Numbered from the stretch's first letter, positions 12,011 through 55,968 are shown. The stretch is DNA of 64,000 nt from Candidatus Oxydemutatoraceae bacterium (GCA_965237985.1 OZ250161.1:1615012-1679011); one strand, 5' to 3'. A program made the numbers and translations. Notes: a model not told the origin generated them from the sequence alone.

Positions 12011-12380
12011 CTTCAAAGCCCAGTTCGACTACGGTTTTTTTCAGTTTCTCCGCATCGCTGTGCAGGGCAAAAACGCGCGATTGCAAGTGGTATATTTTTG
12101 CCGAACTCGGGTGGTTGTCAGAGTCCCCGGTGACCAGTTTTTGACGATCCTTGAGCAAAGTGAAATAAGTGTAGCGGGCCTGTTGCACTTCGTTGTCTGC
12201 CACTATCGGTTTTTTTGCTGATGGAACGGGTGGCGTTGCCGGATTTCTGTCTGCGTTTACCTGATAGAGGTAGATGGTCAACACCACGAAGCCGACAAGC
12301 CCGGCGAACAGCACCCACCGTGTGGGTTTTTTCTGTGCTGTTTCCAGTTCGTGGGCCCGGTGTTTGTAGTCCTTGATCAT
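11862..12380 (-). CDS. SPOR-domain protein (N-terminal TM anchor, C-terminal SPOR peptidoglycan-binding domain)
   Basis: Membrane helix 'WVLFAGLVGFVVLTIYLY'. C-terminal 'VVELGFEARTNAVLANDKKQFQVLLGPYTNQQARDTMHRLRLQGYD' fits the SPOR fold. It lies downstream of argS, as with SPOR genes in other gammaproteobacteria. Confidence 0.7.
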   Translation of the reverse strand: MIKDYKHRAHELETAQKKPTRWVLFAGLVGFVVLTIYLYQVNADRNPATPPVPSAKKPIVADNEVQQARYTYFTLLKDRQKLVTGDSDNHPSSAKIYHLQSRVFALHSDAEKLKKTVVELGFEARTNAVLANDKKQFQVLLGPYTNQQARDTMHRLRLQGYDTTMGEQANPD

Positions 12381-12498
12381 GACGTTTACGGTTTGGCAAC
12401 TGCTAAAACTGCAAGGGAATTTCTGCCCGCATCATCTGCCTATTTTCTTTGGGTTTTGTTACTTCCGGAAGTGGCACTCATAAAAAACATCACCTCCT

Positions 12499-19380: not shown

Positions 19381-20651
19381 GCTAAAGCTGGGGTCGCGCC
19401 CAAGTTGCCGTCCGTTGCTGTTTTCGGCAAAGACTTTTTGCCCTGTATGCCCAACTCTTCCAGTTTTTTTGCCTGGCCTACTAAGTTGCCGCGCCCCTTT
19501 GCCAGTCTGAGCATAACGGTTTCGTGGCTTTTGCAGGCCCGTTCCAGGTTTTTCCCCAAGTCTTTCGCAGACTCCAGGACGCCACTTACTTTATTGTAGA
19601 AAGACGCAGCCTGTCGCACAATTTTCTGGGTGTTCTCTTGCTGCTTGTGAGAGCGCCAGAGGTTTTCAATGATGCGTAAAGTCGGCATCAAGGTATTGAG
19701 CGTCACGAGTCCGACGCGCATTCGCAAAGACTCATCGAATAACGAGGAGTCTTCGTTCAGTGCCGCCGCCAGCGCGTTCTCCAAGGGCACAAACATGAGA
19801 ACGAAATCCAGCGAGTGGACCTGCGGCAGGTCTTGGTAGTTTTTCGCGGCCAGGTCTTTGATATGTTTGCGCATGGCTGCCAGGTGTGCTTTCAGGCATT
19901 TGCTTTTGGCCTCCTCGTTTTTTGCCTCCTGGGCGTTCAGGTAGTCGACCATATTCAGTTTTGAATCGATGATGACCTGGCGGTCAGTCGGCAATTCAAT
20001 CACTATGTCTGGGCGTAACAGGGTGCCGTCTTCGTTGCGATAGCTTTTCTGGGCGTGATAATCCACGCCTTCCTGCAGCCCTGCGGCTTCAAGGATGCGT
20101 CCCAGCTGCACTTCCCCCCAACTGCCTCGTACCTGCGGTGACCGACGCAAGGCGCTTACCAGCTCCTGCGCTTCGTGCGCCAGGGATTCATTTATTTCAC
20201 GTACGTTTTTCAAACCTTCAACCAGCGTGGTGCGCTCCCGGGTAGTTTCATGTCCTTGTCGTTCCAGTTGTTCGCGAAACTGCTGAAACGCTTCCTGAAG
20301 TGGTTTTACGGTGGCATTGAGTTCGCTTTTCCCACGTTCGGCGTAACGGCTGTCAAGCACCTTCATGCTTTTCAAAGTCGCCTGTTCGAGCCGCGCGTCG
20401 AGGGACTGTTCATGTTCTTGGTAAATTTGCGTGCGGCTTTCCAGTCGTGCGCACTCTTCACGTTGCAACTGATGCGCTGCACGTTCTTTTTCCAGTTCCG
20501 ATTGCTCGTGGCGAAGCTGCGTTTCCTGTTCCCGACACAAGGTCTCCACCTGCTTGCGTTTCTGTTGTTCCATTTTGTGTTTGTGCACGAAAAACATTGC
20601 CCCGATAGCGCCCCCCGCACCAGCGCCGAGCAATAAATAGATCACTTCCAC
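19344..20651 (-). CDS. rmuC: DNA recombination protein RmuC
   Basis: N-terminal TM, long coiled-coil region, C-terminal RmuC nuclease-like domain ('DFVLMFVPLENA'). 435 aa. Confidence 0.85.
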   Translation of the reverse strand: MEVIYLLLGAGAGGAIGAMFFVHKHKMEQQKRKQVETLCREQETQLRHEQSELEKERAAHQLQREECARLESRTQIYQEHEQSLDARLEQATLKSMKVLDSRYAERGKSELNATVKPLQEAFQQFREQLERQGHETTRERTTLVEGLKNVREINESLAHEAQELVSALRRSPQVRGSWGEVQLGRILEAAGLQEGVDYHAQKSYRNEDGTLLRPDIVIELPTDRQVIIDSKLNMVDYLNAQEAKNEEAKSKCLKAHLAAMRKHIKDLAAKNYQDLPQVHSLDFVLMFVPLENALAAALNEDSSLFDESLRMRVGLVTLNTLMPTLRIIENLWRSHKQQENTQKIVRQAASFYNKVSGVLESAKDLGKNLERACKSHETVMLRLAKGRGNLVGQAKKLEELGIQGKKSLPKTATDGNLGATPALAEEASNEQDVET

Positions 20652-20850: not shown

Positions 20851-22089
20851 CTAGGGTTCTTGCCGACTTTCCCCGGTAGGCTTCATCGGCGGCAGGGTCT
20901 GCTTCCCTCTCGTGTGCTCGCTCTGCCTGAGTAGTGCCCAGCGGACGTGCTCGCGCACCAAGGGTGAGGAGTGGTTCGTTCTACTGCGCAACGCCTGAGC
21001 CACCTTTTTGCTGCGCGGCGCGTTGCCGAGCCCCACGGCAAGATTGCGCAGCCAGCGTTCGTAACCCAGTCGGCGCAAAGTGCTGCCACGCGTCCGGGCA
21101 GCAAAGTCTTTTTCATCCCAGTCCCAGAGAGACAGCAAAGTCGCAGCGTCCAGTCCCTTGCGCACCTGGAAAGCAGTTTCTTCGCTGGTTTTCGCAAAAC
21201 GGTTCCAAGGGCAGATGGTCTGGCAATCGTCGCAGCCGAAAATACGATTGCCGATCAACGGTCTCAGTGTTTCCGGGATAGTCCCTTTGTGCTCGATAGT
21301 GAGGTAAGCGATGCAACGACTTGCGTCCAACCGGTATGGTGCGATGATGGCACGGGTCGGACACACATCCAAGCAGCGTCGGCAACTGCCACAGTGGTTT
21401 TTTGCGGGACGGGAAACGGGGAGCGGGAGGTTGGTGTAGAGCTCGCCGAGAAAAAACCACGAACCCACACGGCGATTGAGCACCAAGGTGTTTTTCCCAA
21501 TCCAGCCCAAACCCGCTTGTTCGGCAATGGCTTTTTCCATGACCGGGGCACTGTCGCAAAAAGCTCGGTAATGAAAAGTTCCGGCGGCCTGAGTAATTTT
21601 GTCAGCGAGTTTCTGCAAACGTTTGCGTATCAGTTTGTGGTAATCACCACCAAGTGCGTAGCGGGCAATCTGTGCCAGGTCGGAAGCGTCTTCGTCGAGG
21701 CCATGACCGGCAACCCCGGGCGGCAAATAATTCATCCGTACTGAAATGATGGTTAGGGTTCCGGGCATCAGTTGTGCCGGACGCGTACGCTTGGTGCCAT
21801 GTTTTTCCATGAATGCCATGTCGCCGTGCATGCCATCGCGCAACCAATTCAGCAGGCGACTTTCGTGTTCGCCGATGTCTGCGTGACTGATTCCGGTCGC
21901 CTGAAAGCCCAGCTCGCTTGCCCACCGCTTGATTCGTTGCACCAGTCTTCGCAGCTTCGTTGTAGCAAGCGAGGTGTCGCCTGACACGCTGGTTTGGTGA
22001 GTTGGCGAACCGCGGGTTTTCACGCTGGCCTGGTTGGTTAGCGGGTCGCGGGCTTTCACGCTGACCTGTGGCAAGTCATGGGCTTTCAT
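20851..22089 (-). CDS. queG: Epoxyqueuosine reductase QueG (start uncertain; N-terminus overlaps an in-frame 66-bp repeat)
   Basis: 'RIKRWASELGF', 4Fe-4S ferredoxin cysteines 'CGSCRRCLDVCP' and 'CDDCQTICPWN', HEAT-like C-terminus. The conserved part begins near 'TTKLRRLVQRIKRW'. The upstream 50 aa are repeat-encoded. Confidence 0.8.
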   Translation of the reverse strand: MKAHDLPQVSVKARDPLTNQASVKTRGSPTHQTSVSGDTSLATTKLRRLVQRIKRWASELGFQATGISHADIGEHESRLLNWLRDGMHGDMAFMEKHGTKRTRPAQLMPGTLTIISVRMNYLPPGVAGHGLDEDASDLAQIARYALGGDYHKLIRKRLQKLADKITQAAGTFHYRAFCDSAPVMEKAIAEQAGLGWIGKNTLVLNRRVGSWFFLGELYTNLPLPVSRPAKNHCGSCRRCLDVCPTRAIIAPYRLDASRCIAYLTIEHKGTIPETLRPLIGNRIFGCDDCQTICPWNRFAKTSEETAFQVRKGLDAATLLSLWDWDEKDFAARTRGSTLRRLGYERWLRNLAVGLGNAPRSKKVAQALRSRTNHSSPLVREHVRWALLRQSEHTRGKQTLPPMKPTGESRQEP

Positions 22090-22520
22090 GCTGTTTGGTT
22101 GGCGAACCGCGGGCTTTCACGCTGACCTGCGGCGAGTCATGGGCTTTCATGCTGGTTTGGTTGGTTAGCGAACCGCGGGCTTTCATGCTGGCCTGGTTTG
22201 GTTGGTTGTGGCAAGTCATGGGCTTTTGCTGGTTTGGTTGGTTAGCGAACCGCGGGCTTTCACGCTGACCTGTGGCAAGTCATGGGCTTTCATGCTGACC
22301 TGTTGGTTAGCGAACCGCGGGCTTTCATGCTGGCCTGTGGCAAGTCATGGGCTTTCATGCTGGCCTGGTTGGTTAGCGGGTCGCGGGCACTCATGCTGAC
22401 CTGTGGCAAGTCATGGGCTTTCATGCTGACTTGCGGGGAGTCATGGGCTTTCATGCTGGCCTGGTTGGTTAGCGGGGCGCGGGCTTTCACGCTGGCCTGC
22501 GGCGAGTCATGAGTTTTCAC
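21960..22520. repeat. Tandem 66-bp repeat, about 8 units, in frame with queG on the minus strand, encoding (MKAHDLPQVSVKARDPLTNQAS)n
   Basis: Alternating 'gacctgtggcaagtcatgggctttcatgctg' and 'gcctggttggttagcgggtcgcgggctttcacgct' units between 22021 and 22520. Every unit carries an in-frame ATG on the minus strand. Confidence 0.85.
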
Positions 22521-24705: not shown

Positions 24706-26051
24706 AAACAGCTCTGACCACGTTTCCCTCCGCACATCAGGACAAAAAATGGTTCGCCCTGGTGGTGTGCCTGTTCGTGTTTTGTTGGTCAAGCCAGGTA
24801 CAGGCGCAGGCGTCTATTGAAAAGATAGAGGTGCGGGACCTGCCCGACATGACCGAAGTCACGATTGCCCTGGATGCCCCTTTCCGCTATCAGTTCTTTG
24901 CGCTGAACTCTCCGGACAGGTTGGTTGTTGACCTGTTCGACAGCGCGCCCGAAGCTCCGCGCAAGCTCGTGCCACCTTATACAAGCCAGCGGGTAAAGAA
25001 CGTGCGCCATGCTTGGCGGGGACAAAACCACTACCGCGTGGTGTTCGATCTGTCAGGACCGGCAAGTTTTCAAAAGCACACCCGCGCCGACCAGTCGATG
25101 CACTTGCTGGTCATTGCCATCAAAAGCCAGGTGGCAGCGCAGAAACGAACCAGGAAACCAGACTTGCGAGCCGTAGTCGTGGTCATTGATCCGGGCCACG
25201 GCGGAAAAGACCCGGGCGCGGTGGGGATCGCCAATGCCCAGGAAAAAAACGTGGTTCTGGGGGTCGCGAAAGCCCTGTATGCGATGTTGCTGAAAGACTT
25301 CGGGATACGACCAGTGTTGACGCGAAGCCATGATGTTTACGTGTCGCTGCGCAACCGCCTGCGGCACTCACGGAACAATCGGGCGGACGCGGTGTTCTCC
25401 CTGCACGTCGACGCAGTGCCACAGCGCTATGTGGAAGGGGTCTCGGTCTATACACTCTCTGAAAAAGGGGCGACAAACGAAGCGGCGCGCTTGCTTGAAA
25501 AACGCGAAAATCTGTACAGCCACGATGAAGATGTCAGCCTCGCTGAAATCGATAAAGACGTGTCCAGCATCATCATTGACATGTCACAAACCTCCATGAA
25601 AACTCACAGCCTCAAGTTGGCCAAAAAGCTCCTGGCAGCATTGCTCAAAGTAGCTCCGGCACGTACCAGTGAAATACAGTATGGCAACTTCGCCGTGCTG
25701 AAGGCACCGGATTCTCCTTCGGTCCTGGTGGAGCTCGGATACATATCAAACCCTACAGAGGAAGCGGCACTGAAAACCAAGTCGTACCAGCGGCAACTCG
25801 CCGGTGCTTTACGCGCCGGCCTGCTCGCCTATTTTGAACGGAATGCCAGGCGCGACACCCTGCTCGGAAACTATCGCCTGCGGGATTATGTGGTGCGCAG
25901 AGGCGACACGCTTTCCGGTATCGCCTGGCGTATGAGGTCCAGCGTCGCAATGATTACTACGGCATCAGGACTGAAGTCGCAAAGAATTTACGTCGGCCAG
26001 CGACTGATGATCCCCACCCTCAAAATCCGGACTGAGGAGGGCTCTCGGTGA
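24618..26051 (+). CDS. amiC: N-acetylmuramoyl-L-alanine amidase (AmiB/AmiC type) with C-terminal LysM domain
   Basis: AMIN-like N-terminal domain, Amidase_3 core ('VVIDPGHGGKDPGAVG', 'HVDA', 'VLVELGYISNPTEE'), and LysM ('YVVRRGDTLSGIA'). Signal-peptide-like 'KKWFALVVCLFVFCWSSQVQAQA' starts about 40 aa into the ORF. The only in-frame ATG is at 24618, inside tsaE. The true start is unresolved. Confidence 0.8.
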   Translation: MPRQPDRRNGPTPHRTPEPPPADPNPSDLKTALTTFPSAHQDKKWFALVVCLFVFCWSSQVQAQASIEKIEVRDLPDMTEVTIALDAPFRYQFFALNSPDRLVVDLFDSAPEAPRKLVPPYTSQRVKNVRHAWRGQNHYRVVFDLSGPASFQKHTRADQSMHLLVIAIKSQVAAQKRTRKPDLRAVVVVIDPGHGGKDPGAVGIANAQEKNVVLGVAKALYAMLLKDFGIRPVLTRSHDVYVSLRNRLRHSRNNRADAVFSLHVDAVPQRYVEGVSVYTLSEKGATNEAARLLEKRENLYSHDEDVSLAEIDKDVSSIIIDMSQTSMKTHSLKLAKKLLAALLKVAPARTSEIQYGNFAVLKAPDSPSVLVELGYISNPTEEAALKTKSYQRQLAGALRAGLLAYFERNARRDTLLGNYRLRDYVVRRGDTLSGIAWRMRSSVAMITTASGLKSQRIYVGQRLMIPTLKIRTEEGSR

Positions 26052-26155
26052 ACTCCCAATAGTTTTTACGAGAACAGATTTTTAGGTCCTTAAACAGGAC
26101 GGAGCGAGAGTATCCGTTATCGATCCGACAAGCGCTCTGCTAAGAACAGCATGGC

Positions 26156-26341
26156 GTGTCAGTGCAAAGTATCTTGTGCTGGAAACCTGGTTACGGTGGC
26201 GGCACGGAAAATTCGCATTTCGGGCAACCGAAAATGACGACAGCAGAAAATGCCAGGCTGAAAAATTTGTTGGCTGACATTTCACTGGAAAAAGTAGTGC
26301 TGGGGGATGTGCCGGGGGATGTGCTGGGGGAAAAGCGGTAA
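26156..26341 (+). pseudogene. Remnant of an IS3-family (IS2/IS407-group) transposase OrfA C-terminus
   Basis: 'TAENARLKNLLADISLEKVVLGDV...EKR*' matches the conserved OrfA ending (ENxRLKxLVAxLSLDKxxL). No intact orfB or inverted repeats follow. It sits at the left edge of the accessory island. Confidence 0.5.
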
Positions 26342-26639
26342 CGCTGGATGAGCGACGCCAGCCAGCGGTTCAATGTTCAAGGAGACCTCATCAACGTTGT
26401 CCGTCGCACGACCGGACCTGGATGCCTGCGGTCACTGTGCTTGTTCTAAAATAGGCTTGCTGTGCCTGTGGGATGAGCAAACCTTCGCAGTGCTTCAGAG
26501 GAGACAGTCAGCCTGTGTCAACACATTTGCTTTCCACTGAGTTTATGGAACGGAACAAGTCGGTCATTCCCGAAGAGCTGCGCCGTGTGGTGGCAGAGGG
26601 CCTGCTCCGCAAGAAGGTTGTGCCGACCAAGGATTTTGG

Positions 26640-29600
26640 ATGAAGAAACAGGAAAAGATTGGGATCCGTTCACGTTTGCAGAAACTTTCGACCCTCAATG
26701 GCGAGGATGAAATCCGTTCGGAAGTTGGTGAATTGTTCGAGCTTCTCGGGCTGCCGGACAAGAGCCTTCAACACCGGGTTGGCAGATGGTTCGCAGATCT
26801 GGTTTTTTACTCTGCTCGTTTGGTCATTGAGACCAAAGCCCGTGGCAAAGTAAATCCTGAGGATAGAGGGAGCGGACTTGACGAGACCCAGAAAGGGCAG
26901 CTGGCACGCTATCTTGAGAAACTGACTGCAAAAGAAATTTCTCCCTCTGACCAGCCATGGCGCGGCGTCTTGACCGACGGGGAAACCTGGCATGTCTACG
27001 AATGGAACACAAAGTCCCATCCGGGCCGTGAGAAGAGTGGGCCTCGTTCCTCTCGCGTTGCCGAACCTAGGCCGTCTTTGTATGGGTGGAATGATGAACG
27101 GATGCGCGAGATTCGTCCAAAATTTCAGTTTCAAGCCAAGCATAACGGGCGTGCCGAGAGCTTCATTGAATTTTTTCGCCAATACCTTGCTCCTGAAAAA
27201 CGCCGGGGAAAACCTGCTCCCCCGTCGGATTTGGGGACCTCGGTGCTCCAGCCTTTTTTTCATGATTTAGCACAACTTGCTGAGAACGCCGAAGGAGATC
27301 CGCATTTCAACACGAAGTTTCGGGTTTGGAAAAGCGTCCTGAAGGGGGCCGGGCTGTTGCCGCCGGAGGGCATGGTCTCACGTACCCGCAGGTTGTTCCG
27401 GGAACATACGGCACTGGTCGTTACAGCCAGGGGCATTCTCAATGCGATGGGAAAAACAACTCAGCGTGATGCCGGCTTGGACCGAGACTTGAACAGTGGC
27501 TTTGTGTCTTGGTTGCAGGAGGTCACTGGGGGGGCAGAACGTACCCGGCAGTTGTTTCAGGATCTCGAAAAGTACGAATGGCGCGGTACCACCAGAGATG
27601 TGATGCGCACCGCCTACGAGCAATTGATCAAGGCAGAAGATCGCAAGGAATTCGGCGAATACTACACTCCAGATTGGCTGGCTACTGCCGTCTGCGAGGA
27701 CGTTTTGGATGTGGACTGGTTGAACCACGCCTTGGCCGCTGCCCGGCAGGCGCTCACGAGCCGAAGAGCCAGAGAATCTCGGATAGAACCCCTGCTGGGG
27801 ATCGGTGTGTTGGATCCGGCTTGTGGTTCGGGAACCTTTCTGTTCCATGCGGCGCGCCGAATTGTAGACCATGCAGTTCGGGAACGTGGGTTTTCCCCTA
27901 AAGAAGCTTGCCATGCTGCAGCCATTCTGGTTCATGGCATGGATATCCACCCGGTAGCGGTGGAAATGTCACGGGCGGTTTTGCGCACTGCCCTGCCCGA
28001 CCTGGACGATCAGGATGCAGAGCACTTGTCGGTTTACGTTGGCGATTCCCTGCAGACTGACGAGTTTCAGAGTGGAACCCTTTTGGGCAAAGATACAGTC
28101 TATGTTCAGTCCACAAAAGATCATTCCATTGAAATTCCACGTGATCTGTTGAGCCGACCGGATTTTTCCGTGCTCATTGAATGCCTGGTCGGTGCCGCGT
28201 TAGAAAAAGAACCGCTGAACTTGTGCGAATTTGAGATGGACAAGAGTCTGGAAAAGAAATTGCAGATTGCCTATCGGGCGCTCAAGAAAATTTGTCGGGA
28301 CGAGGGCAATCATGTTTGGGCTTGGAAAATTCGGAATACAGCGAAACCGCTGCAATTGACTGGATCAGGAGTTGACCGTCTGATTGGGAATCCTCCCTGG
28401 ATTGTGTCGAACGATACCCCGGAAGGAGTACGCAAGCAGGCGTTCAAGGAAATGACAAAGGGCTATGGACTTCGAGACCCGAAGCTGCACAGAAGTTCCG
28501 CGAAAGGCGATCTGGCAGCTTTATTTGCGGTGCGTGCCATTGATTTGTATTTGGCGTCGGGTGACGGTCGCAAGGGCGGAGGCGGGGTAGCGAAGCGTTT
28601 TGCCTTTGTTTTGCCTGGTTCTGCCCTGATCAACCAAGTATGGAGACCTTTTCGCACTGGGAACTGGCAAGGAAAGCAACACAGAGTGGAAGCGACTCTG
28701 GAAACTCCGTGGGATTTGGGAGGGGTCAAAGAAGCACCTTTTCCACATGCGCCGAACCAGGCGTGCGTGGTTCGGGGGTACTTGGGGGCAGCGCAACAAC
28801 TTCCCAAGGCGATTTTCTGGAAGGCAAGCGACGTGGAACTTGAGCAAGACTGGGAGACTGCGCGCAGACTTATCCGACAAAGTTCCGGATCTGAAGCCTT
28901 CCCTGAGCCGAAGGCAAGCCTGTATGTGCGCGAATTTCATCTCGGTGTGATGTTGAGGCCACTGTGCCTGGGACTGACGACCGATTGGGAAAGCCGTGGA
29001 GATCTGATCCGATTCACCACTTACCGTTCCACGAAGGGACCTTGGAAAGGGAAACAGTACAGAGGCGAAATGGAAGCAGAAGCGACACATTCACTGTTGC
29101 GTTCCCAAACGCTTCGCGCTTTTCGTGCTCTCCCGGACGCATTGCTGCTCGCTCCGTTGCGCGACGAGTCCATCGCGGATTTGGAAACCTGGCCCAAGGC
29201 TTGGTTGCCCAAGGCCCGCAAGTGGTTTCGGGAACATGAAAAAGTCTTCCAGAAATATCGTAGTTCGAAGTCTGCTCCTTCGCTACTGGGGAATATTAAT
29301 TGGAAGAACACCTTCACACGGCAGTATCTACGAGCTTTGAAATCGCCCAAGGCACTGCGCAAAGTTGTTTATAACGCGTCAGGGAGCTCGCTTCGTGCCG
29401 CGCGTGTTGTACTTGGTTTGGCGGTCAATGCGAAGTGTTACTACGCAATACTGACAAGCGAGAAAGCAGCAGCTTACCTTGTGGCCACATTGAACGCACC
29501 GTGTCTATTGCCGGCTTGGAACCATTACAAGACAAGCAGGCTGGATTACGATTTGAACCCTTTGCGAAGCGTGCCGGTTCCTGTTTTTGACAAAACTGAC

Positions 29601-29747
29601 GAACTGCACCTGGATTTGGTGGGAGCCTGCCTGGCAGCCGAACAGGCGGTGGCCCAAAGCAACTCGGCCAAAGATGAGATCCCTCATGAGATACTTGAGC
29701 GGATTGACCGTTGTGTGCGTAGCTTGCTCAAGGAATATGTTCAGTGA
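26640..29747 (+). CDS. Type IIL/IIG restriction-modification enzyme, MmeI family (endonuclease plus gamma-class N6-adenine methyltransferase plus target-recognition domain, one polypeptide)
   Basis: N-terminal 'FADLVFYSARLVIETKARGK' matches the MmeI nuclease motif (D-x10-E-x-K, compare MmeI 'FVDLFWPGILLIEMKSRGK'). MTase motif X 'FGEYYTPDWLA', motif I 'VLDPACGSGTFLFHAARRI', motif IV 'LIGNPPWIV'. Followed by about 450 aa of TRD. 1035 aa. Confidence 0.8.
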   Translation: MKKQEKIGIRSRLQKLSTLNGEDEIRSEVGELFELLGLPDKSLQHRVGRWFADLVFYSARLVIETKARGKVNPEDRGSGLDETQKGQLARYLEKLTAKEISPSDQPWRGVLTDGETWHVYEWNTKSHPGREKSGPRSSRVAEPRPSLYGWNDERMREIRPKFQFQAKHNGRAESFIEFFRQYLAPEKRRGKPAPPSDLGTSVLQPFFHDLAQLAENAEGDPHFNTKFRVWKSVLKGAGLLPPEGMVSRTRRLFREHTALVVTARGILNAMGKTTQRDAGLDRDLNSGFVSWLQEVTGGAERTRQLFQDLEKYEWRGTTRDVMRTAYEQLIKAEDRKEFGEYYTPDWLATAVCEDVLDVDWLNHALAAARQALTSRRARESRIEPLLGIGVLDPACGSGTFLFHAARRIVDHAVRERGFSPKEACHAAAILVHGMDIHPVAVEMSRAVLRTALPDLDDQDAEHLSVYVGDSLQTDEFQSGTLLGKDTVYVQSTKDHSIEIPRDLLSRPDFSVLIECLVGAALEKEPLNLCEFEMDKSLEKKLQIAYRALKKICRDEGNHVWAWKIRNTAKPLQLTGSGVDRLIGNPPWIVSNDTPEGVRKQAFKEMTKGYGLRDPKLHRSSAKGDLAALFAVRAIDLYLASGDGRKGGGGVAKRFAFVLPGSALINQVWRPFRTGNWQGKQHRVEATLETPWDLGGVKEAPFPHAPNQACVVRGYLGAAQQLPKAIFWKASDVELEQDWETARRLIRQSSGSEAFPEPKASLYVREFHLGVMLRPLCLGLTTDWESRGDLIRFTTYRSTKGPWKGKQYRGEMEAEATHSLLRSQTLRAFRALPDALLLAPLRDESIADLETWPKAWLPKARKWFREHEKVFQKYRSSKSAPSLLGNINWKNTFTRQYLRALKSPKALRKVVYNASGSSLRAARVVLGLAVNAKCYYAILTSEKAAAYLVATLNAPCLLPAWNHYKTSRLDYDLNPLRSVPVPVFDKTDELHLDLVGACLAAEQAVAQSNSAKDEIPHEILERIDRCVRSLLKEYVQ

Positions 29748-30099
29748 ATATCGTCGGTGACACAGTCTCCCCATGACATGTTTTCGTATTGTTTAGAGCG
29801 AGGAAAGCAATCTCCACAAGAACCAGAAATGGTTCCCCACCGTGCTTCGGAACAAGATCTTTTTTTATGACATGGTTTTCAAAAAGTATCCCTCAAATAA
29901 GATACATTTGAGGGTATCCGCAGGGGAGTGAGGCATTTTTTGTTTTTGGACATCCCTGCGGCTGCTTGAAGAGTTTTGCAGTTCCGGTATCGCTCAGGTC
30001 AAGTCTCAGGGCAATGCACTTCAATGTCGCCTCGCCCATCTCCCAGCTCGAAGCTCCTAAGCCGCCACGCTGAAAAATTTCTTGCGACCGCCAGTCATC

Positions 30100-30205
30100 G
30101 GTCTCGCCTGTTCAGGGGCCACGAAATTGGGTGGCTTGTTCCCCAATGTCTACGTGCCTGCCTGTTCAGGGGCCACGAAATTGGGTGGCTTGTTCCCCAA
30201 TGCTC
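30100..30205. repeat. Direct repeat, two copies, 54-bp period ('cctgttcaggggccacgaaattgggtggcttgttccccaatg')
   Basis: Exact 42-nt copies at 30107-30148 and 30161-30202, in the 850-bp spacer between the RM gene and the ImmA-like gene. Confidence 0.8.
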
Positions 30206-30605
30206 AAGATATTCAGACCCCAGTCATTTGTGGTACTTTCGGTTGCCCAACTCCGAAAACTGCGCGCTTCCGTCAACCCCCTCGGTTTCCTGGTGTGTTT
30301 TGACTAGACGGCTTGTTATTTGAAGCGAATGTTCCCGCAAACCAGTGCAGAACATGTACGTCTGGCTCAGGGTTTCTCAGTTTTGTTGCATCAGTATGCT
30401 ACAGTTCGTGCGTCCAATTTACCTTCCAGTTTGCCTATGCTTTTATATAGGTTTGTTAGTTTTCCCATCTCTAGTTTTGTGCTCTTTTATCCCTTCCGCG
30501 CCAGCGTCCACTTTCGTGTCAAGACTTCCCAGATAGAACACCCCCCCTCCCAGAACCACCAAAATTCCAAGTGCCTTTTATGTGTAATTCCCATTGTTTT
30601 AGAGC

Positions 30606-31844
30606 GTGACAATGCCTCGGATTCTTGAAAAAATTTCGCCGTGCACCATGAAATGGGCGAGAGTAGATGCAGGCTATCGGACTATCGAGAGAGCCGCCAA
30701 AAAATTATGCCAAGCTGCGGAAAGAATCAGAGGATGGGAAGAGGGGAAGAAGCTTCCTACGGCAGCTCAGCTCAGAGAAGTCGCCAAGACGTACCACCGG
30801 CCGATTTGCTTCTTTTATCTAAAAGAAGTTCCTGAACAGTTCAAGATTCAAAGGCCCGTGGACTTTCGACACCTGTCTTCGGATGTTCACGAACGCTGGA
30901 CTCCCAACCTGATGTTGATGATCAGACAGGCACATGACCGGCAGGACTGGGCGCGCGAACTGTTGGGTGATGAAGCGGGAAGCCAGAATTGGGTCGCCTC
31001 CGTCGACGAAGGAAGCGATCCTAAAGCACTCGCTAAAAAAATACGAAATTGGCTGGGGATCTCTGAACAGAAACAGCGAGGGTTTTCCAATCCGGGGGGT
31101 TTTCTCAATGAACTGGTCCGCCTTGCCGAAAACAGGGGAGTCTTTGTTTCTCGTCATCGGCCCGACCAGAACAGATACCGGTCTATTGAGCCCGAAATAT
31201 TCAGAGGAATCGCGCTCAAAGATGCTGTCGCTCCTTTGGTGGTGATTAATCCAAAAGATGCAATCAGAGGGCAAATTTTCACTCTGCTTCATGAGCTGGC
31301 GCATTTGTGGATGGATGCACCCGGGCTGTCAAATCGAGAACCAGATAAACGAGAAGATACTAGAAACAGAAGAATTGAAGTTGCCTGCAACCGCATTGCC
31401 GCGCAGGTCTTGATGCCAAAGAACTGGTTTCTGGCCGAGTGGAAAAAGTGTTCCGGCCTCTCGGATGATGCTATGAGAATAAAGGAGGTTGCTGGAGTTT
31501 TTTCAGTCAGCAGAGAAAGTGTTGCACGGCGGCGGCTTGACGAGGGTGAAATTACTTGGAATCAGTACATTGAATTTCGTAAAAGGTACCAGGAGGATTG
31601 GCGAGCAGAAAAAGCGAGAAAAAAAGAGCAGGCTTCTCAGAAGTCAAGATTTGGAGGTATGGCGAGCGGGTTGCGCATCTGTTTGGAAAACGGGAAAAAG
31701 CTGGCCCGTCTGGCTTTGGAGAACTATCAAGATCAGGAAATAAGCGCCATCGAGGTTTCTCGAGCACTGAACATGAAAGTCGCACATCTTGGGAAGCTTG
31801 CAAAAGCGGTTGACATTGATCTGCCTGACTGGCGGGATGTATGA
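30606..31844 (+). CDS. HTH_XRE-family regulator fused to an ImmA/IrrE (DUF955, COG2856) zinc metallopeptidase domain
   Basis: N-terminal HTH ('AAKKLCQAAERIRGWEEGKKLPTAAQLREVAKTYHRPICFFYL'). HExxH motif 'LLHELAHLWMD' about 220 aa in. 4-nt ATGA overlap with the next gene. Confidence 0.8.
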   Translation: MTMPRILEKISPCTMKWARVDAGYRTIERAAKKLCQAAERIRGWEEGKKLPTAAQLREVAKTYHRPICFFYLKEVPEQFKIQRPVDFRHLSSDVHERWTPNLMLMIRQAHDRQDWARELLGDEAGSQNWVASVDEGSDPKALAKKIRNWLGISEQKQRGFSNPGGFLNELVRLAENRGVFVSRHRPDQNRYRSIEPEIFRGIALKDAVAPLVVINPKDAIRGQIFTLLHELAHLWMDAPGLSNREPDKREDTRNRRIEVACNRIAAQVLMPKNWFLAEWKKCSGLSDDAMRIKEVAGVFSVSRESVARRRLDEGEITWNQYIEFRKRYQEDWRAEKARKKEQASQKSRFGGMASGLRICLENGKKLARLALENYQDQEISAIEVSRALNMKVAHLGKLAKAVDIDLPDWRDV

Positions 31845-32365
31845 CTGAAGAAGGCTTAGAAACAGAGGAGCCAGTTTATTGCATTGATTCATCAAGCCTG
31901 ATAGCTATGTGGAAAGAGAGATATCCGAAAGAGGTTTTTCCTTCCTTGTGGGAGAACAAGCTAAGAGGGCTCGTGAAATGCAGGCTTGGGGTGTGCAAAC
32001 AAGTGTGGCAGGAAATTGACCACCCGGACTTAAAAGAGTCTCTTTCCAAGATGGGGTTGGACGAAGGACATCTCTTGCCTGAATGCCAAGACCTAAAAAA
32101 CAGGGTCGCGGAAATTATAAACAAGCATCCCGCATGGGCCAAGGGAGATGGGGGAAGAGAAGTGGCTGACCCGTATATCATTGCCTTTGCAAAAGAGCAG
32201 GGTATGGTGGTTGTAACAGAAGAGTTGCCCTTTGATAAAACAAAGCCAGGGGCGGAGAGGAAAAGAAGAAGTTCTGGCCCCAAGATTCCTGATGTCTGCA
32301 AAGAAATGGGTGTTGAGTATATGACCCTGCTGAGTTTGTTCAGAAACGAGAGGTGGAAATTTTAG
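31841..32365 (+). CDS. DUF4411-family protein (predicted PIN-like nuclease fold), second gene of a two-gene module with the ImmA/IrrE gene
   Basis: 174 aa. Acidic residues placed like PIN catalytic positions ('YCIDSSSLI', 'VWQEIDH', 'VADPYIIAFA', 'VVTEE'). Translationally coupled to the upstream gene. The family name is from memory. Confidence 0.65.
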   Translation: MTEEGLETEEPVYCIDSSSLIAMWKERYPKEVFPSLWENKLRGLVKCRLGVCKQVWQEIDHPDLKESLSKMGLDEGHLLPECQDLKNRVAEIINKHPAWAKGDGGREVADPYIIAFAKEQGMVVVTEELPFDKTKPGAERKRRSSGPKIPDVCKEMGVEYMTLLSLFRNERWKF

Positions 32366-33149
32366 CCGGGCAGGAAGTGAGGTGTCCTTGGTTTTTGCTA
32401 CAGAACGTTATCCGAAAGGGTATTTCGAGTGCTTGTTAACGCCGCCTGATTCCTCCTGTTCAGTTCTTTATCCGACGGCTCGACAGCTTGGCCGGTCAGG
32501 TGGATTTTCTCAGGTCTCCAAGTAGCAAGTGATTGGCGGATGCTTTTGCTGTGAGTTTCACAGATGGATTCCAAACTGGCGAGAAAAGGTGGCTGAATGG
32601 CGTTTGATGACCTGCCAATGCCAGAGTACACGGAACAACTAGATGGCATAAATTCACTGGGCGAGATAGCGACATCAGCATTCACCGGGAAGCGAAAATG
32701 TCGCCAGGCTTTCGCACATTGAAGCAGGACTTGATTCAAAAAGCAGTTCAGTGTGGTGACCGGGTGCCGGGTTGTAGGCTTGTTGTTTGCTCCTGCTTGT
32801 TCATGGGTGGCGCCCCTGTTCGGTTGATGTTTGTTCCTGTCGTTATCAATGTCGGCTTCAGTGTGTCAGTAATGGGGGTTGAAGTTATGTTCACACAGAT
32901 TTTGACAGTTGCGTTTTCTCGCGTCATCTGTGTTATAGTCGGGAACCCGTTTTGGCGGCGAAGTGGTGAGGGTTGCGTCCGGGGGTTGGTTGGGTCTTTC
33001 GGTGTGGGGTCTCCCATGCTATGGGGGCTCGCTTTCAGGTTCACCGGTGGTGAGCCAAGGCGCACTCGAGGAACGGGTTTGCCGCAGTATGGACAGTGAA
33101 CGCTGGTCGGGGATGCGTTCGCTTACAGTTTATTCAACAGCGAGGTCTC

Positions 33150-33668
33150 GATATGTATGCAGTAGATCAATTGCTCAAGGAATTCGGAGAAGAGGTCGGG
33201 ATTCCAGAGCTGGTTTTTGATGAGGAAGGCTACTGTACGCTTTCCTTTGACGACACGATTGTCACGCTTTCTAAAAGGGAAAATCAGGAAAGGCTGGTTT
33301 TCTACGCCGACGTGGGGCTTTTGCCTACGCCTCCTCCCAAGGACATTCTGCTGGGATTGCTGGAAGCGAATGCATTGCACAGAGCTGTTGGTGATGGTGC
33401 CATCGGGATTCATACTGATGAAAGCCATAACATGACCATCGTGGTTTATTCCTTGTTATTGCGGGTCGCCAACATCGATAAGGCTGTTTTTGAATCCGCC
33501 CTGAAAGAGTTCATTGAAATTTCTGAAGTTTGGACAAAACACTTGGCGGATGCCGACAAGAAATATATTTCAAAAGATGAGGAAGACAAGAAATCCGGTG
33601 GTGGGAAGGGAGATGCCGTCGAAAGTACCGGTGGTGCTGCCCCAGGTGGCGGCGGAATGAGAGTTTGA
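33150..33668 (+). CDS. Type III secretion chaperone-like / YbjN-family protein with a Gly-rich acidic C-terminal tail
   Basis: 'MYAVDQLLKEFGEEVGIPELVFDEEGYCTLSFDDTIVTLSKRENQERLVFYADVGLLP' has the class I T3SS chaperone/YbjN pattern. Start at the internal Met 33150 rather than 33096. Confidence 0.55.
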   Translation, partial: DMYAVDQLLKEFGEEVGIPELVFDEEGYCTLSFDDTIVTLSKRENQERLVFYADVGLLPTPPPKDILLGLLEANALHRAVGDGAIGIHTDESHNMTIVVYSLLLRVANIDKAVFESALKEFIEISEVWTKHLADADKKYISKDEEDKKSGGGKGDAVESTGGAAPGGGGMRV

Positions 33669-33769
33669 GGTTTTGTTTGCCTAGGGCTTTTGGGTTTTTA
33701 GCTGAGGAGCCGATAGCACTTTAGATTGTTTCCCTCAGGTGGGTTCGATGGTGTTTTCGTTCCCTACGT

Positions 33770-34165
33770 TGGGGCTGGGGCAGGGATGGTTACTGCCTGA
33801 GAAAGGCATGGTCTGGTCCTTGGTGCGAAGGGGCGCGTTAGGACCCGCGCTGCTCTGCTGATTTATCGGCATTCCTTTGTCCCCCGTAAATCCTGTTTCG
33901 TGCCGGCAACCTTTATGGCCCTGCGGTCTGGTGAGTTCCCTCGACTTTGACAATGAACGTTTTGTTCACTGGCTGGGGCAGGGATGGTTACTGCCTGAGA
34001 AAGGCATGGTCTGGTCCCCGGTGCGAAGGGGCGCGTTAGGACCCGCGTTGCTCTGCTGATTTGTCGGCATTCCTTTGTCCTCCGTAAATCCTGTTTTTGT
34101 GCCGGCAACCTTTGCGGCCCTGCGGCCTGGCGGGTTCCCTCGACTTTGCCAGTGAATGTTTTGTT
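33770..34165. repeat. Two tandem ~197-bp units resembling the 3' end and downstream region of the minus-strand AmmeMemo gene
   Basis: 33770-33965 closely matches 33965-34165. Both resemble 34238-34330 (compare 'ccagtgaatgttttgttcactg...tttgtcctccgtaaatcctgtttt' with 'ccagtgaattgaactgaagcg...tttgtccgtaaagctggcacg'). Confidence 0.7.
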
Positions 34166-34237
34166 CACTGACTGACGCAACTCGCCACCTCAGCCACCTG
34201 GCTTCAGGTACAGGGATATTTTGTGGCCCCAGTTCCC

Positions 34238-35644
34238 CTAGGCCAGTTCTTCATCGCTCCAGTGAATTGAACTGAAGCGCCTGACCGTTTGTTTTTGTCC
34301 GTAAAGCTGGCACGTGATGCCGGCTTTGATTTTCAAGTGTGCGAGAAAGTCTTCCGGTTCAGGCAGTGTCTCCCAGACTTCCGGAAGGAAAGTGCCGCTT
34401 TGTGGGGGGGCTCCCAGGACTAGGCCATCAATGCCTGGTCTGATTTTTTTCAAAAGCTCCGCTTCATCACGGTAAGGAACTTTTTCAAGGTCTGAAAGAA
34501 CGGATATGGAAATAGACAGTTGGTCAAGCTCCTCCCTGACCAAGGGCGTGAATCGACTATCCCGGAAGGCTGCGCTTACAGCATTACCTGCTATTGATGA
34601 CACCAGTGGGCGAGTGGCGTTGATGGTGCCCACACAGCCGCGGAGTTGGCCTTGGTTTTTCAAAGTCACGAAACAGGCGGCTTTTTTGCGCAGTGCTTCG
34701 GAATGGCTGGCAACGTCAACGGCAATTTCAGAGCCGTACTCAAGTTGGTGGTCAATGGCGTTGCGAGCCAGTGTGCACAGCAACTTTTTTTCAGCCTGCG
34801 AGAAAGGTTGTGTCTCGTACATGGTGAAAGCCGCGTAGCCCACAACTCTGCTTTTGTCACCGCTGACATCGCCAGAATTGATCTGCGCAATTTTTTCCAC
34901 TTCCATGCTCTTTTGGCGAGCGACTTGGAGCAGCCCGCCCAGCAGAATCTGTCCGCAAGCCTGTGTTTCACTGATTTCTTCGGGTTGCAGCCTTAAAACA
35001 GAATCTACCGCCGAGTTGTCAAGGGTGTAGGCGGTATCGTAGTCATGGTAGTGACTGAGGTCGGTGCTGATGATCACGAGCGTTTCATCGCCACCCCAGA
35101 AATGATTGATCAACAGGGCCGCCTGTTCGTAACTTGCTCCACTGGTTACGAAGGGTAAAAGAACAAACTCTTCCAGAACCTGCTGCAAAAAAGGCAACTG
35201 TACTTCAATGCTGTGCTCTCGCACGTGCGCAGGGTCGTTGTATTCCACAAAAGGCAAGGTGGCAACCGCATCTGCAATGCCTGCCTGGTCGATGGAAACG
35301 TCCCCCAAGGGTGTGCGATATGCCGTGGCCGTGGGAGCACACAGTTTGGCGGTTGGAACGTAATGTGCGGGCCCGAGCAGGACTACTTTTTTAATGTTGT
35401 GCGACACATCGGCAAGCATTGCGTAGGCATGGGCGGCAATCTTTCCCGAGTACATATATCCGGCATGGGGGGCAACCAGTGCTTTCGGTGATTTTCTATT
35501 CTCTTTTGGTAAAGAGGTTTGTGCGACCTCTGCGAGCAAGTGCTCCACTTCGGTCTTCAGAGCGCCCGATTCGTCGGGATAAAAAAGACCTGCAACTGCT
35601 GCCTGCCTGACACGATTTTCAAGTGGCTTTGTAATGTCTACCAT
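34238..35644 (-). CDS. AmmeMemoRadiSam system fusion: protein B (MEMO1-like, N-terminal) plus protein A (AMMECR1 domain, C-terminal)
   Basis: N-terminal 'AGLFYP...LVAPHAGYMYSG...LGPAHY' (Memo-like). C-terminal 'ACFVTLKNQGQLRGCVGT' (AMMECR1 signature). 468 aa. No radical-SAM partner gene is adjacent. Confidence 0.8.
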   Translation of the reverse strand: MVDITKPLENRVRQAAVAGLFYPDESGALKTEVEHLLAEVAQTSLPKENRKSPKALVAPHAGYMYSGKIAAHAYAMLADVSHNIKKVVLLGPAHYVPTAKLCAPTATAYRTPLGDVSIDQAGIADAVATLPFVEYNDPAHVREHSIEVQLPFLQQVLEEFVLLPFVTSGASYEQAALLINHFWGGDETLVIISTDLSHYHDYDTAYTLDNSAVDSVLRLQPEEISETQACGQILLGGLLQVARQKSMEVEKIAQINSGDVSGDKSRVVGYAAFTMYETQPFSQAEKKLLCTLARNAIDHQLEYGSEIAVDVASHSEALRKKAACFVTLKNQGQLRGCVGTINATRPLVSSIAGNAVSAAFRDSRFTPLVREELDQLSISISVLSDLEKVPYRDEAELLKKIRPGIDGLVLGAPPQSGTFLPEVWETLPEPEDFLAHLKIKAGITCQLYGQKQTVRRFSSIHWSDEELA

Positions 35645-38309: not shown

Positions 38310-41300
38310 GAATTCATGGTGGAACGCAGCGGTGTCTGAGCGACCGGAAAGTATCGTTTCCCGTGGTCACGGCACAATGGGCTTGCGGTCATGCATATTC
38401 CGGAAGTCAGACCATCCGGTACCGAGTGGTTGCGCAAATCCGGCATCATACTTTTGACTGTCATCAGTTTCTTTTGGACATTGGCATTCATGGTGGAACG
38501 CAGCGGTGTCTGAGCGACCGGGAAATATCGTTTCCTGCGGTCACGGCATAATGGGTTTGCGGTCATGCGTATTCCGGAAGTCAGACCATCCGGTACCGAG
38601 AGGTTGCGCAAATCCGGCATCATACTTTCGGCAGCCATCAGTGTCTTTTGGACATTGGCATTCATGGTGGAACGCAGCGGTGTCTGAGCGTTCGGAAAGT
38701 ATCGTTTCCCGTGGTCACGGCATAATGGGTTTGCGGTCATGCATATTCCGGAAGTCAGGCCATCCAGTACCGAGAGGTTGCGCAAATCCAGCACTACATT
38801 TTCGGTAGTCATCAGTGTCTTTTGGACATTGGCATTCATGGTGGAACGCAGCGGTGTCTGAGCGACCGGAAAATATCGTTTCCCGTGGTCACGGCATAAT
38901 GGGCTTGCGGTCATGCATATTCCGGAAGTCAGACCATCCGGTACCGAGGGGTTGCGCAAATCCAGCACTACTTTTCGACTAGTCATCAGTTTCTTTTGGA
39001 CATTGGCATTCATGGTGGAACGCAGCGGTGTCTGTGAGCGACCGGAAAGTATCGTTTCCCGTGGTCACGGCATAATGGGTTTGCGGTCATGCATATTCCG
39101 GAAGTCAGACCATCCGGTACCGAGAGGTTGCGCAAATCCGGCATCATACTTTTCGACAGTCATCAGTTTCTTTTGGACATTGGCATTCATGGTGGAACGC
39201 AGCGGTGTCTGAGCGTTCGGAAAATATCGTTTCCTGCGGTCACGGCATAATGGGTTTGCGGTCATGCGTATTCCGGAAGTCAGACCATCCGGTACCGAGA
39301 GGGTTGCGCAAATCCAGCACTGCATTTTCGGCAGTCATTAGTGTCTTTTGGACATTGGCATTCATGGTGGAACGCAGCAGTGCCTGAGTGAGCGACCGGA
39401 AAATATCGTTTCCCGTGGTCACGGCATAATGGGCTTGCGGTCATGCGTATTCCGGAAGTCAGACCATCCGGTACCGAGGGGGTTGCGCAAATCCGGCACA
39501 TATTTTCGGCAGTCATCAGTGTCTTTTGGACATTGGCATTCATGGTGGAACGCAGCGGTGCCTGAGCGTTCGGAAAATATCGTTTCCGTGGTCACGGCAT
39601 AATGGGGTCGTGGTCATGCGTATTCCGGAAGTCAGACCATCCGGTACCGAGAGGTTGCGCAAATCCGGCATCATACTTTTGACTGTCATTAGTTTCTTTT
39701 GGACATTGGCATTCATGGTGGAACGCAGCGGTGTCTGAGCGACCGGAAAATATCGTTTCCTGCGGTCACGGCATAATGGGTTTGCGGTCATGCGTATTCC
39801 GGAAGTCAGACCATCCGGTCACCGAGAGGGTTGCGCAAATCCAGCATCATTTTCGGCAGTCATCAGTGTCTTTTGGACATTGGCATTCATGGTGGAACGC
39901 AGCGGTGTCTGAGCGTTCGGAAAATATCGTTTCCTGCGGTCACGGCATAATGGGTTTGCGGTCATGCATATTCCGGAAGTCAGACCATCCGGTACCGAGG
40001 GGGTTGCGCAAATCCGGCACTGCATTTTCGGCAGTCATCAGTGTCTTTTGGACATTGGCATTCATGGTGGAACGCAGCGGTGTCTGAGCGACCGGAAAGT
40101 ATCGTTTCCCGTGGTCACGGCATAATGGGTTGCGGTCATGCGTATTCCGGAAGTCAGACCATCCGGTACCGAGGGGTTGCGCAAATCCGGCACTGTATTT
40201 TCGGCAGTCATCAGTGTCTTTTGGACATTGGCATTCATGGTGGAACGCAGCGGTGTCTGAGCGACCGGAAAGTATCGTTTCCTGTGGTCACGGCATAATG
40301 GGTTTGCGGTCATGCGTATTCCGGAAGTCAGACCATCCGGCACCGAGAGGTTGCGCAAATCCAGCATCATACTTTCGACTGTCATCAGTTTCTTTTGGAC
40401 ATTGGCATTCATGGTGGAACGCAGCGGTGTCTGAGCGACCGGAAAGTATCGTTTCCTGCGGTCACGGCATAATGGGTTTGCGGTCATGCGTATTCCGGAA
40501 GTCAGGTCACCCTTCACAGAGGGGTTGCGCAAATCCGGCACTGTATTTTCGGCAGTCATCAGTGTCTTTTGGACATTGGCATTCATGGTGGAACGCAGCG
40601 GTGCCTGAGTGAGCGACCGGGAAATATCGTTTCCTGCGGTCACGGCATAATGGGCTTGCGGTCATGCTATTCCGGAAGTCAGGCCATCCGGTACCGAGGG
40701 GGTTGCGCAAATCCGGCATCATACTTTCGGCAGTCATCAGTGTCTTTTGGACATTGGCATTCATGGTGGAACGCTTGAGCGACCGGGAAATATCGTTTCC
40801 TTGGCACAATGGGTTTGCGGTCATGCGTATCACAGAGGGGTTGCGCAAATGGCACTATATTTTCAGCAGTGTCTTTTGGACATTGGCATTCATGGTGGAA
40901 CGCAGCGGTGTCTGTGCGACCGGAAAGTATCGTTTCCCGTGGTCACGGCATAATGGGCTTGCGGTCATGCGTATTCCGGAAGTCAGACCATCCGGTCCGA
41001 GAGGTTGCGCAAATCCGGGATTTTCAGGAGGCCAGGGGGTTGCGCAAATCCGGCATCATACTTTTGACTGTCATCAGTTTCTTTTGGACATTGGCATTCA
41101 TGGTGGAACGCAGCGGTGTCTGCGACCGGAAAGTATCGTTTCCTGCGGTCACGGCATAATGGGTTTGCGGTCATGCGTTTCCGGAAGTCAGGCCATCCGG
41201 TACCGAGAGGTTGCGCAAATCCAGCATCATACTTTTGACTGTAAGTTTCTTTTGGGCATTGGCATTCATGGTGGAACGCAGCGGTGCTGATGAGCGTCCG

Positions 41301-51653: not shown

Positions 51654-51659
51654 CACTAA

Positions 51660-55967: not shown

Positions 55968-55968
55968 C

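Follow-up and report, generated by a model that had tools for sequence, protein, structure and literature searches.

A candidate solitary Type IIG restriction-modification gene beside a vertically inherited M78-DUF4411 pair at the amiB/Memo-AMMECR1 junction of an uncultured gammaproteobacterium

A 64,000-nucleotide stretch of the genome of Candidatus Oxydemutatoraceae bacterium (GCA_965237985.1 OZ250161.1:1615012-1679011; hereafter, the window), which belongs to an uncultured gammaproteobacterial lineage with genomes of about 2 Mb, contains an 8.2-kb interval between the stop codon of an AmiB-like amidase gene (26051) and the stop codon of a convergent gene for a Memo-AMMECR1 fusion protein (34238). 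Within it lie a decayed element resembling an insertion sequence (IS) of the IS3 family, a solitary gene for a candidate Type IIG restriction-modification (RM) enzyme, a gene combining a helix-turn-helix (HTH) with a Peptidase_M78 domain (hereafter, M78) that overlaps a DUF4411 gene, and a gene for a small CesT-family protein (Table 1). The genes on the left flank encode YjeF, TsaE and the AMIN-Amidase_3-LysM amidase; those on the right, on the opposite strand, are Memo-AMMECR1, tgt and queA. The initial annotation took the whole of 26.1-34.2 kb for an 8-kb accessory island with the composition of a defence island, and all the genes that it listed were found in place, their reality as genes being judged one by one below. 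The island claim holds for 26026-30607, which no relative has and for which an empty site exists, but not for 30.6-34.2 kb, where the gene order is conserved in relatives; the empty site in relatives thus corresponds to a 4.6-kb segment instead of 8 kb.

The amiB-Memo interval in the window and in its relatives

A protein search with the amidase (in which the window's own product is P0001, 429 aa) identified two close relatives only, with 73% (on a 1.9-Mb circular contig) and 78% identity, the next matches dropping to 42%; a search with the CesT-like protein led to an 87%-identical protein on seven contigs from one sample. The synteny comparison covered nine loci of these two closest relatives (L012, L013, which equals L024, L020 to L023, L025 and L026). 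L025 begins just before the CesT-like gene and shows only the downstream part; the other six contigs of the sample reach upstream of this gene. Scanning species-representative genomes with the amidase returned just LysM-domain matches in Anaerolineae and Clostridia, which are uninformative for synteny, and no relatives came up in JGI metagenomes scanned with the CesT-like protein and an M78 alignment.

In blastn alignments against the nine loci, both flanks match at about 80% nucleotide identity; the match breaks at 26015-26025 and resumes at 30602-30608. The left break (26025) lies within the final codons of the amidase gene and the right resumption (30608) four bases before the ATG of M78. 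The segment in between consists of the IS3 OrfA-like remnant, the intact solitary Type IIG gene and about 860 bp of non-coding DNA, and neither the remnant nor the Type IIG gene is present in any of the relatives compared. Four relatives (L012, L020, L022 and L026) have an empty spacer of about 210-230 bp at the amiB-M78 junction; this spacer of about 230 bp is kept among divergent sister loci and copied inside their tandem units. Three others (L021, L023 and L024) contain a different cargo of about 1.7 kb at the same junction, with a 295-aa open reading frame (ORF) of no known family, and the junction has therefore been targeted repeatedly. The window amidase ends in ...IPTLKIRTEEGSR, a tail that is longer than, and non-homologous to, those of the sister genomes (VPVPKTAQ) and the outgroups (VPVRKK). 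The cargo ORF of the sister contigs (294-295 aa; 11629-12516 on the minus strand of L013, 2514-3401 in L021 and 363-1247 in L023) has no Pfam or PADLOC match; behind it lies a 113-bp fragment from the interior of the amidase gene.

To the right of the segment, the relatives share one gene order, namely amiB, M78 (with DUF4411) and the CesT-like gene, followed by Memo-AMMECR1, tgt and queA on the opposite strand (in L025, the downstream part only). Codon-aligned Nei-Gojobori estimates for the window versus the relatives give synonymous distances (dS) of 0.66-0.71 for the amidase, 0.66-0.69 for Memo and 0.73 for YjeF, with ratios of nonsynonymous to synonymous distances (dN/dS) of 0.19-0.23, 0.19-0.20 and 0.14, respectively. 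M78 is 63-64% identical to its orthologues at the protein level (dS 0.86-1.05; dN/dS 0.22-0.26), and DUF4411 is 45-47% identical, compared with about 80% for its neighbours (dS 1.06-1.34; dN/dS 0.30-0.39). All nine related loci contain the CesT-like gene, whose conservation (85-87% amino acid identity; dS 0.78-0.85; dN/dS 0.08-0.10) exceeds that of most housekeeping genes next to it. Because the dS values of the three genes (0.78-1.34) begin in the range of the flanks (0.65-0.73), M78 and the CesT-like gene being just above the flank values and DUF4411 higher, and because all three show purifying dN/dS ratios, we conclude that they are clade-core genes that have been inherited vertically with their neighbours since the split and evolve under purifying selection. 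Accordingly, one gene order across the family is found in the right half of the interval (30.6-34.2 kb) and not in the left half. The sister-clade loci differ from each other by dS of 0.21-0.41, compared with at least 0.65 to the window.

More distant relatives, with about 40% amidase identity, have amiB followed by rimP-nusA-infB-rbfA-truB. The absence of mutL, miaA and hfq after the amidase gene, pointed out in the initial annotation, is borne out, but because these relatives carry amiB-rimP-nusA-infB, the order in Escherichia coli (amiB-mutL-miaA-hfq) is the wrong baseline for this lineage. The amiB/Memo junction marks a break in synteny specific to this clade rather than the interruption of a mutL operon.

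Table 1. Coordinates of the features discussed (positions in the window unless a related locus is named)
Feature	Position	Strand	Evidence
AmiB-like N-acetylmuramoyl-L-alanine amidase (AMIN + Amidase_3 + LysM), left flank	24762..26051	+	Pfam; last codons rewritten by breakpoint
Window-specific 4.6-kb segment, in place of the relatives' ~230-bp amiB-M78 spacer	26026..30607		blastn breakpoints, junction alignments
Decayed IS3-family OrfA-like remnant (HTH + leucine-zipper region)	26069..26338	+	Translation, Pfam, tblastn
Candidate solitary single-chain Type IIG/IIL RM enzyme, 1035 aa	26640..29747	+	PADLOC REase_MTase_IIG 1.6e-47
Non-coding right tail of insertion	29748..30607		Six-frame translation without Pfam match at E<=1; no Rfam match
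HTH_3 + Peptidase_M78 (ImmA/IrrE, DUF955), RmrA-like putative antitoxin/regulator	30612..31844	+	Pfam HTH_3 6.5e-5, Peptidase_M78 1.1e-14
DUF4411 PIN-like nuclease, predicted toxin	31841..32365	+	Pfam 1.7e-24
CesT-family (T3SS-chaperone-like) small acidic protein	33153..33668	+	Pfam CesT 3e-18; true start set by comparison with orthologues
Two tandem copies of ~198-bp repeat, CesT-Memo spacer	33773..34179		Repeat search; self-blastn 92% over 204 nt
Memo + AMMECR1 fusion, right flank, convergent with the module	34238..35644	-	Pfam; 77% amino acid identity to L012 orthologue
Large tandem arrays	4853-6386, 8239-12048, 18575-19531, 22047-22519, 33773-34179, 38312-42945, 51434-52155		Repeat search
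Tandem M78 amplification (related loci)	L020 1-9000; L021 2160-9550; L022 3267-9180; L024 2312-9550; L026 1553-7410

The candidate Type IIG enzyme and the IS3-like remnant

The Type IIG gene encodes a protein that is full-length compared with homologues of about 950-1035 aa and that appears to combine an N-terminal PD-ExK nuclease, a helical linker, a gamma-class N6-adenine methyltransferase and a target-recognition domain (TRD). In a family alignment of 28 sequences, the methyltransferase motifs DPACGSG (392-398) and NPPW (584-587) are invariant, and so are E64 and K66 of the nuclease motif D53...E64-T-K66, with D53 present in at least 90% of the 28 homologues. The Pfam N6_Mtase model matches at 2.5e-8, and the AlphaFold2 model of the enzyme is confident, with a predicted local distance difference test score (pLDDT) of 85.6 and a predicted template modelling score (pTM) of 0.83. 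The gene had been described as encoding a complete MmeI-family enzyme, of which the intact Type IIG RM-methyltransferase stands, whereas the family label is too strong. Both MmeI Pfam models fall below their thresholds (MmeI_N, E = 2.6e-4, 21.8 bits versus a cutoff of 27; MmeI_Mtase, E = 1.9e-3, 17.9 versus 27); a Foldseek search with the enzyme model returned BrxX/PglX, CamA, M.BseCI, MmeI and DrdV about equally, at ~1e-13 (for MmeI 5HR4, E = 3.8e-13 and TMt 0.53); and the match of the family profile to MmeI (4e-7) is confined to the pre-methyltransferase and methyltransferase region. These results argue against a close relationship with MmeI. A single-sequence PDB search with the enzyme gave no match. 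The likeness to MmeI and DrdV consists in a single chain of about 1000 aa with an N-terminal PD-ExK domain, gamma N6-adenine methyltransferase motifs and a C-terminal TRD, encoded by a solitary gene and with a matching fold (DrdV 7LO5), but the sequence identity to MmeI in the structural alignment is about 11%. Judging from sequence and model, the protein is best described as a putative Type IIG/IIL enzyme with MmeI-like architecture and as a distant relative of MmeI only. An identity as PglX of BREX or DrmMI of DISARM was considered and rejected: the matches are weak (1e-11, and far under the NCBIfam cutoffs), the nuclease motif is conserved and there are no partner genes.

Homologues of the enzyme (57% and 47% identity) are solitary genes amid housekeeping genes of other bacteria, the pattern expected for a self-contained mobile RM gene. 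The GC content of the gene is 0.535, compared with a genome average of 0.526, and its codon-usage score of 0.044 is intermediate, compared with about 0.10-0.15 for most core genes (Memo 0.043, queA 0.073). Searches of plasmid and phage collections with the 4.6-kb insert returned no DNA match and no vehicle, and viral contigs contain just distant (23-30%) relatives of the methyltransferase. A small ORF at 26474-26643 overlaps the start of the enzyme gene, has no counterpart in any fetched locus, including the loci of the 57% homologue, and was discarded.

The IS3-like remnant lies directly past the breakpoint, as a 90-codon stretch with one in-frame stop, and its translation contains two stretches (...EQHGVSVQSILCWKPGYGG...ENARLKNLLADISLEK...) resembling the HTH and the leucine zipper of IS3 OrfA. 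The earlier call of an OrfA remnant is weakly confirmed: the Pfam HTH_Tnp_1 match is under the cutoff (E=0.025), and tblastn against plasmids gave a single match (E=1e-3), which is annotated as a transposase of the IS3 family. The remnant also matches the PADLOC model 'DrmC' (5.4e-6). No OrfB/rve match at E<=1 was obtained from the six-frame translations of 26026-26660 and 29730-30630, and there is neither a second copy of the remnant in the window nor a convincing pair of inverted or direct repeats. Near the 3' end of the remnant, a 12-bp unit (GTGCTGGGGGAT) is repeated 2.9 times (26297-26331). At the other end of the segment, the non-coding right tail includes a palindromic hairpin (29890-29914) and, farther right, a 43-nt sequence that recurs without mismatch at 54-nt spacing (30106-30148 and 30160-30202).

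A second RM locus is located elsewhere in the window, at 52784-59642: a complete Type I system (HsdM, HsdS and HsdR) accompanied by a YgjP-like metallopeptidase, with low GC content at third codon positions (GC3) and a low codon-usage score. It is adjoined by a 958-aa ORF (60094-62970, minus strand) with an N-terminal ISXO2-like DDE transposase domain (4e-22) and no Pfam match at E<=0.001 in the other ~800 aa.

The M78-DUF4411 pair, the CesT-like gene and tandem repeats

The HTH-ImmA/IrrE plus DUF4411 pair named in the initial annotation is recovered with the respective Pfam models. The M78 protein retains the HExxH motif (HELAH) and matches the PADLOC models RmrA (7e-13) and CapP (3e-13). The two genes are co-oriented, and the DUF4411 start (31841) overlaps the M78 stop (31844) in an ATGA; the DUF4411 stretches YCIDSS, ADPYII and VVTEE are common to the window protein and the full-length copy in L013, and acidic residues in them may form the PIN catalytic site; the gene is truncated in L012. 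An HTH-DUF955 gene with DUF4411.1 downstream is a predicted three-component toxin-antitoxin (TA) system (Matelska et al. 2017, PMC5499597), and RosmerTA, in which an M78 antitoxin is combined with varied toxins, has been validated as anti-phage (bioRxiv 10.1101/2022.05.11.491447, PMC10440598). The window pair is similar to both in that an HTH protein with an M78 zinc-peptidase domain and an intact HExxH is encoded upstream of, and overlapping, a small effector gene, and it is predicted to be a RosmerTA-type TA or abortive-infection configuration. It differs from RosmerTA in that the putative toxin is a PIN-like DUF4411 protein outside the PADLOC RmrT models, and in that the pair is chromosomal, clade-conserved and vertically inherited, as opposed to residing on a mobile island. 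It differs further in that the sister genomes amplify the pair in tandem, mostly without an intact toxin. In these genomes, the M78 unit is present in 2-4 tandem copies, the repeated unit of about 1.9 kb running from the 3' (LysM) end of the amidase gene through the spacer and M78 into DUF4411, of which it includes the first ~60 codons. Every M78 copy in the amplified loci is intact and under purifying selection (dN/dS between paralogues of 0.21-0.41), and the last DUF4411 copy alone is complete.

The T3SS-chaperone-like gene of the initial annotation (T3SS, type III secretion system) is likewise borne out as a member of the CesT family. In the 190-aa ORF translation, the Pfam domain extends over residues 25-146 (66.5 bits versus a cutoff of 22), and the NCBIfam SicP model matches at 2e-8, under its cutoff. 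The domain and the small, acidic protein recall the CesT/SicP chaperones of the T3SS, but the window protein carries a glycine-rich C-terminal tail, and neither the scanned genes of the window nor the related loci include T3SS apparatus or effector genes. Homologues with 44-46% identity occur in unrelated genomic contexts, and the association with the M78-DUF4411 pair may be coincidental.

The convergent ORF at 32398-32739 (minus strand; 113 codons, TTG start), which had been listed among the genes of the island, is probably no gene: it is not conserved in the sister genomes, where the surrounding 670-bp stretch has no homology, it has no Pfam, PADLOC or NCBIfam match, and no real homologue was found. 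An exhaustive HMMER search of 1.84 billion protein representatives gave three matches to it, of which the two that were read are tandem-repeat translations, and the third matches as many repeated stretches. The two (P0249, 1798 aa; P0250, 905 aa) consist of near-perfect tandem repeats of about 97 aa, that is, translated DNA arrays. When compared with a short, unrelated ORF, such repeat translations give inflated E-values over multiple stretches (3e-22), a pitfall when homologues are sought in genomes rich in repeats. In the spacer at 32.37-33.04 kb as a whole, neither of the two ORFs has a Pfam match, and there is no Rfam match. Another ORF (33863-34180, minus strand) is an artefact inside the two-copy repeat of about 198 bp in the CesT-Memo spacer. 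The corresponding spacers of the relatives contain arrays of the 3' end of the Memo gene, but the window's repeat is not derived from the 3' end of its own Memo gene.

Large tandem arrays account for some 20% of the window (about 12.5 kb), with periods of 125, 220, 296, 30/66, 198, 174 and 238 bp and up to ~26 copies. At least two of them are made of gene ends, a 174-bp unit including the murJ start region and a 296-bp unit including the 3' end of rmuC, and the copy number of arrays at the same sites varies between relatives. In L012 (8353-9500), a unit of about 115 bp that joins the 3' end of yjeF to the 5' end of tsaE is repeated about nine times and called as ORFs of 34-69 aa; the window has a single copy.

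Age and origin of the two parts of the interval

The convergent amiB/Memo-AMMECR1 junction is probably a variable spot made up of an old and a recent layer. The old, vertically inherited layer would be the translationally coupled M78-DUF4411 pair followed by the CesT-like gene. Here, the HTH-metalloprotease may repress the operon and neutralise or control the PIN-like DUF4411 protein, the presumed toxic effector, which phage infection or stress would release. The recent layer, confined to the window lineage, would be the 4.6-kb segment that was swapped in for the ~230-bp amiB-M78 spacer, clipping the last codons of amiB and taking away the native upstream region of M78; the decayed OrfA fragment was probably left by the vehicle or by an IS behind the rearrangement. 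By analogy with MmeI/DrdV-type enzymes, the Type IIG protein would recognise an asymmetric site via its C-terminal TRD and methylate an adenine in this site, marking self DNA, while the N-terminal PD-ExK nuclease would cut unmodified incoming DNA at a fixed distance.

Several observations weigh against this reading. The empty-site genomes form one sister clade, and one gain or one loss is equally parsimonious on presence and absence. The insertion has no clean signature, with no target-site duplication, IS inverted repeats or OrfB; the sole flank-like repeat is a 21-nt stretch with 19/21 matches (26252-26272 with 30064-30084), which was also rejected as a second IS remnant, for although it exceeds 200 shuffles, it is short and A/T-rich. 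The IS3 assignment itself is weak, being based on sub-threshold similarity. In the window genome, M78 is without its ancestral upstream region, and the DUF4411 protein matches no PADLOC RmrT model at E<=0.01.

The opposite polarity, in which the Type IIG block belonged to the ancestral junction, a deletion in the sister-clade ancestor reduced it to a ~230-bp spacer and the window retains the older state, would account for the lack of a target-site duplication and of an intact mobile element, fits the near-average GC of the enzyme gene and costs one event just as gain does, with two lineages only being sampled; we nevertheless consider it unlikely. The short amidase terminus of the sister genomes fits the outgroup pattern, whereas the window tail is elongated and derived; the position of the IS3-like remnant coincides exactly with the breakpoint; the ~230-bp spacer has been kept by divergent sister loci and copied within their tandem units; and homologues of the enzyme occur in scattered and unrelated places as insertions of a single gene. 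We infer gain rather than loss in the window lineage from the derived amidase tail, the intermediate codon usage of the enzyme gene and the presence of the IS-like remnant. That the whole of 26.1-34.2 kb was acquired horizontally as one 8-kb defence island between amiB and Memo/tgt is highly improbable, even though the entire interval is absent in distant relatives, an RM enzyme stands together with a TA-like pair, and the codon-usage scores of the interval genes are lower than those of most core neighbours. The compositional profile is mildly atypical only (GC3 of 0.49-0.56, compared with 0.59-0.66 for the nine core genes nearest to it, except Memo at 0.55 and queA at 0.58). Against a single island stand the presence of M78, DUF4411 and the CesT-like gene at the same position in the loci of the two closest relatives, their dS values relative to the flanks and the purifying selection on all three, the CesT-like gene being the most conserved of the region; the outgroup comparison, moreover, gives a synteny breakpoint and no empty site, and no att-like direct repeats are present at the outer borders (26.1 and 34.2 kb). 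The defence-island composition proposed at the outset applies to the Type IIG enzyme and the TA-like pair, but not to the CesT-like gene, the most strongly conserved of the neighbourhood. The junction does resemble a defence hotspot in its variable content between two conserved convergent core genes (empty, a 295-aa ORF, or an IS remnant with an RM gene), in the RM enzyme adjoining a TA-like system and in the second, Type I RM patch in the same window. It differs in having no integrase, tRNA or att repeats (there is no tRNA gene and no Pfam integrase domain in the window, where the sole Rfam match at the gathering level is RNase P, far from the interval), in being half clade-core, and in varying via spacer replacement and tandem duplication as opposed to site-specific integration.

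The functional assignment of the older layer can also be read differently. M78, DUF4411 and the CesT-like gene might form a domesticated regulatory unit (a protease-controlled repressor, a nuclease and a chaperone-like protein) and no defence or TA module, leaving the RM gene as the only defensive component. ImmA/IrrE proteins are known regulators (PMC10440598), and such a role would agree with the long vertical retention under purifying selection (dN/dS of ~0.09 for the CesT-like gene), with the truncation of DUF4411 copies in tandem arrays whose 2-4 M78 paralogues stay intact, and with the lack of a PADLOC match for DUF4411. This possibility appears doubtful, given that ATGA-coupled M78-PIN pairs have repeatedly been predicted to be, or validated as, TA or anti-phage systems, and that the fast evolution of DUF4411, its truncation in L012 and the variable copy number are typical of addiction and defence modules. 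Starting from the amplified loci, one might regard the junction less as a passive insertion site than as the visible tip of a lineage-specific tandem-duplication process, the one behind the large arrays of the window having also multiplied M78 in the sister genomes. With all M78 copies intact under purifying selection and the DUF4411 copies truncated, orphan M78 arrays would arise that serve as antitoxins or regulators, possibly as anti-addiction or anti-phage decoys, and the CesT-like protein would be a third partner; this we deem very unlikely.

With the two-layer reading preferred, the finding is real but ordinary: a solitary Type IIG gene with an IS scar in a polymorphic spacer, adjoined by a vertically inherited RosmerTA-like pair and a chaperone-like gene. 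All components are of known kinds, although the enzyme family and the M78/DUF4411 lineage are uncharacterised members of these, and the general significance is small; the most unusual feature of these genomes is their tandem-duplication habit, which lies outside the island question itself. The case illustrates how a reading of the sequence on its own can fuse a recent RM-gene insertion with a TA-like module that is old and vertically inherited, so that the two look like a single island. The window and its four empty-site relatives constitute a natural and cleanly delimited plus/minus pair for a divergent Type IIG family without a characterised member, and in long-read assemblies of these genomes, the recognition motif of the enzyme could be read from methylation signals. 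The M78/DUF4411 pair, together with its tandem amplification in the sister genomes, is a usable case for the persistence and expansion of a RosmerTA-like module in small genomes.

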